In this document: one piece after another, positions 9,445 to 11,275 of the stretch
How positions within the stretch are numbered: position 1 is the first letter of the stretch
Layout of the letters: the number at the start of each line of letters is the position of its first letter
From: Giardia intestinalis
Lineage: Eukaryota
Direction: 5' to 3' (one strand)
Length of the DNA stretch: 16,058 bases
Assembly (NCBI GenBank): GCA_000002435.2
Contig: AACB03000008.1
The notes under the pieces: generated by a model
What the model was told of the DNA's origin: nothing
What the model saw: the letters and a program-made list of their open reading frames with translations, nothing else
The model's database searches: none
Program-made: the position numbers and the translations under genes

Positions 9445-11275
9445 TGGAGTGAGATATGCACAAAGGCTGAGGGAGGACTGTGCACTGCTTGTAATACAGA
9501 TAGTCAGTACATATTCCAGAATGGGGCAGACAAGGTGACCCCTGGTGGGGAGTGCATCCTCTGTCATGATGCCACAGGAGCGAATGAGAACAAGGGAGTG
9601 GCCAACTGTCTCAAGTGCACGGCACCTGGTGGCAATACAGGAGCGGCCACGTGCACCGAGTGTCAAGATGGGTACTACATGGACTCTCAGGCATGTACCA
9701 AATGTGATGGTACTTGTCTGACCTGTGAGACATCGGCGACCCAGTGTACCTCTTGTAAGGGAAATACGTTCCTGAAGGATAATGCATGCGTGAATAGTGA
9801 TGGATGCACTGGAAACACTTATGCTGACCCTATGACAATGACATGCAAGGAGTCTGGTATAGCAGATTGCACCGCGTGTGAGTACAACACGACTGTCAGC
9901 AAGCCCCAGTGCACCGCCTGTAACAATAAGAAGGTGAAGACAGAGCTGGATGGGACAACCACTTGCGTCGATGATGCTGGGTGCGCAACAGATAACGTCG
10001 ACGGATCCCACTTTCTGAGTGATGATAGCACCAAGTGCATATTATGCAGTGATACAACAACAGGAACAGAAGCAAACGACAAGGGGATTGCTAATTGTAA
10101 AACGTGTAAGAAGAACGGAGCCAAGCCGACCTGCTCAGCTTGCCTCGACGGATACTTTGGTTCTGATACATGCACAGCTTGCGGTGCCAACTGTGCTACA
10201 TGCTCTGCTGCTGGCAATGATCAGTGCACTAAATGCAAGCCTGGATTCTTCATGAAACAACCCGGCTCTGCTGGTAAGTGCTTCGCCTGCGACAGTAAAG
10301 CCGACAATGGCATCGAGGGGTGCTCCCAATGTAACAGCGGCCTAACCCCTACATGCACCGATTGCAAGTCCAACTATCGCAAGGAGGGAACCAATCCGGT
10401 GAAGTGCACAAAGGCCTGCGAGGACCCCACGGCCTGCGGGGGGACGTCTGGGGCCTGCGGGGCGGTCGTCGTTGACAGCGCCGGGGCGTTCTCCCAGTAC
10501 TGCTCGCTGTGCGGAGACCCCGCCACGTTCCCCATCGATGGGATCTGCACAGGAACTAAGGGTGACAACACCTGTGCCAATGGCGTCTGCACCCGGTGTG
10601 CTGCCGGGTTCTTCCTGTACATGGGCGGCTGCTATGATGTGTCGAAGGCTCCTGGCAGCCACATGTGCAAGACTGCCGAGGGAGGGAGGTGCACCGCCCC
10701 CAGCGAGAACGGCCGGTACTTCCTGGTCCCGGGGGCATCCAATACTGATCAGTCTGTCCTGGCCTGCGAGAACCCCCTAGGCACACTAGTAGGCACTGGT
10801 GATACCTCTAAGGCATATGTGGGGGTAGATGGCTGTTCGGCATGTACGGCCCCAGCAGCTCCATCTGAGACTGGTATGACTGCTGCTGTGTGTACAGCGT
10901 GTACCAACAACAACAAGCCCAACCTGGCTGGGAGCGGGTGCTTCGCATGTACCGTTGACGGATGCTCGCACTGTGGAGCAGGCGGTAAGTGCGAGGCCTG
11001 TACCAGTAAAGACCAGAGGCCGAACACAGACGGAACGAAGTGCATCGCCTGCAATATCGACGGGTGCGTCAGGTGCAGCGAGGAGAACAAGTGCGGCCAG
11101 TGTGGGGACGACTACAGGCTGGAGGGTGAGGCGTGCGTGTCCACCAAGCCCAGCGGGGGCAACAGAAGCGGCCTCAGTACTGGTGCCATAGCAGGGATCT
11201 CCGTGGCTGTCATCGCTGTCGTGGGGGGCCTCGTGGGCTTCCTTGTGGTGGTTCGTGTGCAGGGGGAAGGCGTGA
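9445..11275 (+). pseudogene. VSP-family unit 6, a mosaic of unit-5-type 5' 40 nt, unit-4 body and unit-1-type tail. A net 2-nt deletion near 11244-11247 destroys the TM end and CRGKA tail. The ORF reads through the spacer to 11325
   Basis: Units 1/3 have GGCTTCCTCTGCTGGTGGTTCGTG and unit 6 has GGCTTCCTTGTGGTGGTTCGTG. The translation becomes ...GLVGFLVVVRVQGEGVTWVVNAVQWVIVCDRG* instead of ...GFLCWWFVCRGKA*. The canonical TGA would be 11273-11275. Confidence 0.6.

Follow-up and report, generated by a model that had tools for sequence, protein, structure and literature searches.

Joints in a Giardia VSP pseudogene array map to short islands of sequence identity

Antigenic variation in Giardia is usually described as a choice among about 130–200 intact genes for variant-specific surface proteins (VSPs), made purely by epigenetic or post-transcriptional means. 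Recombination is not considered to be the basis of switching, and to our knowledge no expression site that receives gene segments has been shown in this parasite. The Giardia lamblia WB DNA analysed here (positions 1–16058, hereafter the window; all features lie on the + strand) consists of eight head-to-tail VSP pseudogene cassettes that share long tracts of sequence, and it raises the question of what determines where one tract ends and the next begins. Delimited by stop-to-stop frames, the units are U1 (1–1858), U2 (1859–3783), U3 (3784–5709), U4 (5710–7578), U5 (7579–9393), U6 (9394–11325), U7 (11326–14419) and U8 (14420–16058, truncated at the window end). An initial annotation had read them as mosaics joined in short stretches of identity, which exact tracts and three-way sites bear out, and had proposed that conserved blocks, above all a 20-nt block at the joints of U6 and U8, act as preferred crossover points. 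We found that these two joints are probably the product of segmental gene conversion resolving in islands of identity and that the block is probably not a dedicated recombination signal.

The joints were mapped by exact-match tracts and three-way informative sites; whole-unit mosaic dynamic programming proved too coarse in diverged regions. Positions 9481–10805 of U6 are 100% identical to 5797–7121 of U4 over 1325 nt, and sequence identical to U1 takes over in the same place: U1 1361–1425 equals U6 10780–10844 (65 nt exact) and U1 1445–1824 equals U6 10864–11243 (380 nt exact). U4 and U6 differ at 0 of the 1325 nt that lead up to 10805 and at 22 of the 100 nt behind it. The three-way site map of U6 shows 54 consecutive U4-type sites up to 10779 and 12 consecutive U1-type sites from 10806. 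As the last U4-specific site and the first U1-specific site stand at these two positions, the joint lies inside 10780–10805, 26 nt with the sequence GGCACACTAGTAGGCACTGGTGATAC that is the same in U4, U1 and U6 and comprises the 20-nt block plus 6 nt. The switch from unit 4 to unit 1 type that had been placed at about 10800 is thereby confirmed. It is a patchy joint and not a clean single switch: at 10845–10863 the three-way sites of the alignment show four U4-like sites amid U1-type sequence, U3 has a comparable U4-like patch at 5250–5295, and past the block the sequence is a patchwork for 60–90 nt, until a long run of identity (51 nt, 1475–1525 = 7210–7260) is reached again.

In U8 the corresponding tract runs from 14545 to 15874 (1330 nt). 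It matches U3 3903–5192 (1290 nt exact to 15834, then one single-nucleotide difference) and U1, where 371–1381 equals U8 14864–15874 (1011 nt exact). U1 and U8 show 0 differences in these 1011 nt up to 15874 and then 25 in 100. A switch from unit 3 to unit 7 type at about 15872, a few nucleotides downstream of the block, had been suggested for U8; the joint is real, but comparison at the protein level places it inside the block, and the donor was not U7, to which U8 past 15874 is only ~91% alike. Closest to the 3′ part of U8 is a protein encoded outside the window, XP_001705783 (P0050), whose gene is the neighbour of that for XP_001705784 in the 2007 annotation. From the block onward it agrees with U8 at 62/68 amino acids and is identical for 44 amino acids from GTGNTAK; it reads GTLI (GTLIGTGNTAK) where U8 reads GTLV. 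The breakpoint interval of U8 is thus 15864–15874, its right bound being the end of the U1/U3-type tract and its left bound the V/I codon difference to the P0050 type, as deduced at the protein level. A second joint, from P0050 type to U7 type, was placed at 15984–15997, at a motif coding for KPN and again partly from protein-level comparison: U7 12852–12919 equals U8 15984–16051, and the identity of P0050 to U8 ceases at nt 15997. Precise mapping of the breakpoints, which had been proposed as a check, brings the joints of U6 and U8 together in the same 26-nt stretch.

Further joints lie elsewhere in the units. At the 5′ side, U6 changes from U5/U2 type to U4 type at 9481–9494 within TGCACTGCTTGTAA, where all five lineages are identical, and U8 changes from U7-like to U3-type sequence at 14545–14565 within AACGGCCTGTTCAAGAACCC. 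Identity of U1 to U3 and U8 starts at 371–381 (TATGCTGACCC); the donor of U1 1–370 is not in the window. What had been taken for a third class of junctions at a conserved block coding for AYADP (GCTGACCC, about 375 and about 4229) is this single boundary at 371 (= 4222 = 14864), viewed from both sides. The idea that the membrane-proximal 480 bp are exchanged as a unit is overstated as well: in addition to the patch at 10845–10863 in U6 and the second switch at ~15984–15997 in U8, the last ~12–90 nt plus spacer are exchanged separately. Both of the longest 100% tracts (U4 = U6 at 9481–10805, U3 = U8 at 14545–15874) span nearly the same part of the unit, from TGCACTGCTTGTAA or AACGGCCTGTTCAAGAACCC to the block, an ‘ectodomain cassette’ of ~1.3 kb.

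How conserved is the block itself? The 20-mer (GGCACACTAGTAGGCACTGG) occurs exactly five times in the window, a count reached in 0 of 200 shuffled sequences: at 1361–1380 (U1), 5212–5231 (U3, inside the tract common to U1 and U8), 7096–7115 (U4), 10780–10799 (U6) and 15854–15873 (U8). Its first 15 nt (GGCACACTAGTAGAT) are also found at 9001 (U5) and 12734 (U7), and it is absent from U2 in the alignment of the window. This distribution had been described correctly apart from the first coordinate, which was off by 10. The five copies sit in 100%-identical tracts (U1 = U3 = U8 and U4 = U6) and therefore represent just two independent lineages, A (U1, U3, U8) and B (U4, U6). Across the five lineages U1, U2, U4, U5 and U7, mean pairwise identity in columns 10780–10805 is 0.50, below the unit mean of 0.60, and the complete block is confined to A and B; the term ‘conserved block’ does not apply to it. 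A dedicated recombination signal would be expected in all units and at all joints, like the 17-bp repeats of vls, which mark every cassette boundary. Here, the complete block is present in 5/8 units and two lineages, and at least six further joint sites in the window lie in other sequences.

An alignment of 77 VSPs shows where the block stands in the protein. Behind a family-wide motif, QSVLACxNPLGT, comes a short linker that is prone to indels (LVGTGDTS, LVDT, LVDPQGTA, VIGAGSTA, AVGE and others), and then the conserved KAYVGVxGC. The block codes for GT plus LVGTG and straddles the edge of the motif and the linker, its 3′ half lying in the latter. Its sequence can be divided into GGCAC, ACTAGT, A, GGCAC and TGG, that is, a 5-nt direct repeat 12 nt apart around the 6-nt palindrome ACTAGT, and gaps of 12 nt are found precisely at the block columns in U7 (12748/12749) and U2 (~3219). 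The palindrome and the direct repeat are all that the block offers in favour of a structural role. The linker appears to be prone to in-frame indels, possibly through slippage.

If the block is no conserved signal, do the joints favour identity as such? U1 and U4 are ~72% identical overall, and their longest identity runs measure 51, 38, 29, 26 (the block run), 26 and 24 nt. With 26 nt the block run ties for fourth place; it is the longest between ~300 and 1470, i.e. in the central 1.1 kb, and 9.6% of the aligned positions of U1 and U4 are in runs of at least 26 nt. For three joints the window contains both parental types, and the identity runs around these joints measure 26, 14 and 21 nt (length-biased percentiles 0.096, 0.124 and 0.088; Fisher p = 0.033). 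Compared with random windows, conservation among the five lineages is higher at six distinct joint sites (Fisher p = 0.005), an effect that stems from TGCACTGCTTGTAA and the CRGKA-coding end, both of which are fully conserved. The joints favour identity islands to a modest degree, as homology-dependent recombination predicts. A preference for one particular block was not borne out: with 7–9 joints per unit of ~1850 nt, at least one pair would fall within 26 nt with a probability of 0.46–0.66, so that the coincidence of the two joints carries little weight, and a joint lies by definition in an identity run of its parents. The block as a conserved preferred crossover point is not established.

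These observations can be brought together as follows. Silent cassettes without start codons would be overwritten piecemeal via homologous recombination, mostly by non-reciprocal conversion tracts of ~0.1–1.3 kb, with other array units and VSP genes elsewhere in the genome as conversion partners. The end of a tract could resolve, and be mapped, solely where donor and recipient are the same. In that part of the gene, crossovers or heteroduplex ends between A-type and B-type units would then tend to land in GGCACACTAGTAGGCACTGGTGATAC, which codes for GTLVGTGD at the edge of QSVLACxNPLGT, because this is the longest A/B identity run of the central 1.1 kb. The block would be an island of homology, and exchange would occur at no fewer than six such points per unit. 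Both long tracts, U4 = U6 and U3 = U8, are bounded on both sides within the unit, which favours non-reciprocal gene conversion over unequal crossover, and we count the abrupt changes in identity at 10805 and 15874 in support of conversion. Unequal crossover was rejected as the main mechanism: the U1 = U6 tract spans 10780–11292 and ends 17 nt into the spacer, and the next units (U2, U7) are unrelated. The patchy sites near the joint in U6 and in U3 fit heteroduplex repair or repeated short conversions.

Several points weigh against this interpretation. Both 5′ and 3′ of the block, U6 is collinear with an intact WB VSP (P0005) and with its ortholog from isolate DH (P0002); the combination of B-type and U1-type parts may therefore be old, and U4 or U1 may be the converted partner, so that more than one direction and number of events would fit. 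Two-segment change-point scans of 60 and 86 VSP proteins gave an apparent, roughly 2-fold excess of change-points near the motif (8–9 of ~21 events within 26 of 127 amino acids), which would allow some additional local preference but is confounded by the higher power of the scan at its window centre. The run-length and conservation tests are based on just three to six joints, and the nucleotide-level examination covers one genome window.

The strongest competitor of segmental conversion in identity islands assigns the block, or the island QSVLAC-GTLVGTG, the role of a true hotspot or module boundary that is used beyond what its identity length accounts for and splits a ~1.3-kb ectodomain from a ~0.5-kb membrane-proximal cassette. 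Both 1.3-kb tracts of 100% identity begin in 5′ conserved blocks and terminate in the same block, and proteins encoded outside the window add two tract ends within 45 nt of it. P0005, which carries a signal peptide, equals U4/U6 at 174/177 amino acids over residues 271–447; this tract reaches as far as the T of LGT, inside the block, and over residues 496–596 the protein equals U1 at 96/101. At the DNA level P0002 (locus L002) loses identity to U4/U6 after GGCACA, block position 6, diverges for ~120 nt (10772–10891) and then returns to ~95% identity to U6. XP_001705784 (P0001) switches from A type to U6 type inside QSVLAC, 27–45 nt 5′ of the block. At least four tract ends (U6, U8, P0005/P0002 and P0001) thus fall within ~60 nt, and the conserved island is a recurrent exchange boundary, one of several. 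Counted over all listed tract ends, 4 of ~25 lie in the 56-nt island against 0.76 expected (P = 0.008), with the island chosen post hoc; the external ends alone give 2 of 18 against 0.54 expected (P = 0.10). Change-points of P15 and assemblage B proteins were also found at −8 to 0 amino acids from the motif. However, the coincidence of the joints in the window has the high chance probability given above, the block is absent or partial in 3/5 lineages and its conservation is below the average of the unit, exchange is just as frequent at other points, and the U6 joint is patchy without a clean cut. A joint-centred protein search with ~105 added proteins brought no further independent tract end to the block (that of P0161 is the P0005 end again). 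We consider a true hotspot unlikely. Quite unlikely, in our estimate, is its extended form, in which the QSVLACxNPLGT island, its GTLVGTG extension specific to lineages A and B and the 5′ CTAC/NGLFKNP blocks form a preferred module boundary that swaps ~1.3-kb ectodomain and ~0.5-kb membrane-proximal cassettes between silent arrays and expressed VSPs. If it were true, the boundary would provide a recombinational route to new antigens, similar to mosaic VSG formation, beside the accepted epigenetic switching. A hotspot block matters only if it holds genome-wide; at present the data amount to the homology-dependent recombination expected in a diverged gene family.

The opposite proposal, that joints are placed uniformly and that both their overlap and their location in identity runs arise from chance and from the definition of a breakpoint, draws on the same chance probability for the coincident pair and on the fact that a breakpoint interval is a parental identity run by construction. 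Change-points are moreover spread from −120 to +87 amino acids around the motif, with clusters near it (including the P15 and assemblage B proteins), after GSGC (+62 to +70) and elsewhere. Yet points placed uniformly would hit shorter runs than those in which the joints lie, and joint sites are more conserved than random windows, as the two Fisher tests above show; recombination is also known in general to depend on homology. An absence of any positional preference is in our view distinctly unlikely.

That the mosaics are assembly artefacts, produced by chimeric joining or consensus homogenisation of near-identical repeats, is very improbable: tracts of 1.0–1.3 kb with 100% identity are difficult to assemble, the 2007 protein P0001 combines the same parts into a different chimera and differs from U1 at five amino acids, and no exact match for the open reading frames of the window was found in the protein collection, but any read is much longer than the 26-nt identity and would span the joint with type-specific flanks, polishing is unable to make joints between 72%-identical sequences, the U6-type joint peptide ENPLGTLVGTGDTSKAYVGVDGCSACTAPAAPSETG occurs independently in the Sanger-based P0001 of 2007, and U5 is 100% identical to an independent GenBank entry, VSP S7. 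As the source of the joints themselves an assembly artefact is unlikely; the order of the units, and how the P0001-type unit is related to the window, are less certain. In comparison to window positions 575–1855 and 4426–5706, P0001 follows the A type as far as QSVLAC and the U6 type from there on (ENP...APAAPSETG), and it has one more unique residue. It comes either from a further unit beyond the window or from an assembly error in the earlier version of the genome.

Tracts shared with intact genes extend well beyond the block. Stretches of 125–287 amino acids in the array are 100% or nearly 100% identical to intact WB VSPs with signal peptides (P0003, P0011, P0018, P0005 and P0007). Residues 246–532 of U2 (window 2833–3693) are identical to P0003 over 287 amino acids (100%), residues 133–275 of U4/U6 are 100% identical to P0011, and residues 33–185 of U5 (window 7726–8184) differ from P0007 at a single position (152/153). 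In U4, and likewise in U6, the shared tracts correspond to 6157–6585 and 6484–7101. Such near-identity indicates that the silent array probably exchanged sequence recently with complete VSP genes elsewhere in the genome. Other loci contributed less: ENA locus L001 holds a single VSP ~80% identical to the units of the window and too diverged for breakpoint mapping, the assemblage B (GS) loci L003 and L004 contain small arrays with no near-identical tracts between units and hence no joints, exact-protein look-ups of NCBI WB VSPs gave no match, and scans of metagenome_contigs with the 20-mer and with the CRGKA-coding 3′ end found no Giardia DNA.

The array belongs to a published kind, the VSP linear array or pVSP array of isolate WB. 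Linear arrays of G. lamblia WB have been described with ~60-bp spacers, downstream members that lack the initiator element (Inr) and recombination supported by GENECONV (Adam et al. 2010, PMC2996952), and pVSP arrays were reported in the GL2.1 genome together with a reclassification of the Cys-rich family (bioRxiv 10.1101/2022.03.07.483299). The window agrees with these arrays in organism, head-to-tail arrangement, spacers of ~50–70 nt, downstream members without Inr, ATG or signal peptide, and the CRGKA tail; long stretches of 100% identity between members are known there too, with statistical evidence for recombination in the 3′ 234–657 bp (PMC2996952). In contrast to those papers, which give no nucleotide-resolution joints and do not name the block, the joints are resolved here to 11–26 nt and tracts shared with intact VSPs are identified. 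The joints illustrate at the nucleotide level a phenomenon that was known from Giardia VSP arrays before.

In Giardia muris, silent start-less psiVSP arrays exchange sequence with intact VSPs by recombination or segmental gene conversion (Xu et al. 2020, PMC7641422). The cassettes of the window resemble them in being silent, start-less and engaged in such exchange; the G. muris arrays differ in their position next to telomeres and in their GCRGK tail, in place of CRGKA. Silent archives of partial genes, segmental conversion and joints in short identity are also features of mosaic VSG formation in Trypanosoma brucei, mitotic recombination of var genes in Plasmodium falciparum, pilE/pilS, vlsE and msp2 (see also PMC13233330 and PMC8957917). 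Like the promoter-less or start-less donor cassettes of these archive systems, the units of the window have no ATG at the start and no Inr, whereas exchange is visible here only as an evolutionary footprint. Linear arrays have been proposed to be a reservoir or a graveyard (PMC2996952). The joints and the 100% tracts shared with intact VSPs support the view of pseudo-VSP arrays as a working reservoir that reshuffles the repertoire via segmental conversion, an idea put forward as speculation for G. lamblia (Adam 2010, PMC2996952) and proposed for G. muris (PMC7641422).

The assignment of the units to pseudogenes follows from their 5′ ends. All long open reading frames of the window lie on the + strand, and their products are cysteine-rich (Cys ~12%, 24–45 CXXC motifs per unit) and terminate in a hydrophobic segment plus CRGKA. 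The frames of the eight units open at 5, 1910, 3847, 5761, 7630, 9445, 11348 and 14489, with WSV/EICT right after a stop-rich spacer. An in-frame ATG or a signal peptide was found at the start of 0/8 units, the first in-frame ATG lying 144–849 nt 3′ of the frame opening; lacking both, the units are pseudogene cassettes and not functional genes. The VSP Inr PyAATGTT has no match in the window, where 2.6 would be expected by chance. The spacers measure 51, 63, 51, 51, 51, 72 and 69 nt; TGACTTGGGTAGTGAATGC, which resembles a poly(A) signal, follows 7/7 stops and precedes three to five GTGATAG-like heptamers, variable in number between spacers. The CRGKA tail is present in 6/7 complete units (U1–U5 and U7), was lost through a frameshift in U6 and is not covered in U8, which the window end truncates. 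The Pfam VSP family (PF03302) matches U1, U4 and U7 with 127–284 bits (cutoff 31.4; E 1e-36 to 3e-84), and the top database match of the array is XP_001705784 of G. lamblia ATCC 50803 with 99% identity.

Two units are degenerate beyond the missing start. U2 has a 1-nt deletion relative to U5 (2130–2140, at ~2137) that shifts the frame, and a 2-nt deletion in U6 (11240–11250, at ~11244) shifts the frame of the transmembrane and CRGKA end, whose would-be stop is at 11273–11275. The U5 frame from its first internal ATG (7774–9390) is 100% identical to the GenBank entry ‘Variant-specific surface protein S7’ (Q8I8W2, P0028); since U5 was deposited as a VSP despite its missing start, it may be transcribed. 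Residues 405–587 of U5 equal P0149. A ‘High cysteine protein’ from the 4.0-Mb WB chromosome (P0166) is identical to residues 14–360 of U2 (window 2137–3177) without the frameshift of U2, and its reading frame terminates three amino acids past the Q of QSVLAC; it may represent the U2 locus as assembled in a different version, or else a paralog that is cut short at the motif. U7, with 1023 amino acids, exceeds the other units by ~1.2 kb, which lie between the KPN/GSGC region and the transmembrane segment, and its last 480 amino acids are 97% identical to the 2007 WB protein P0090.

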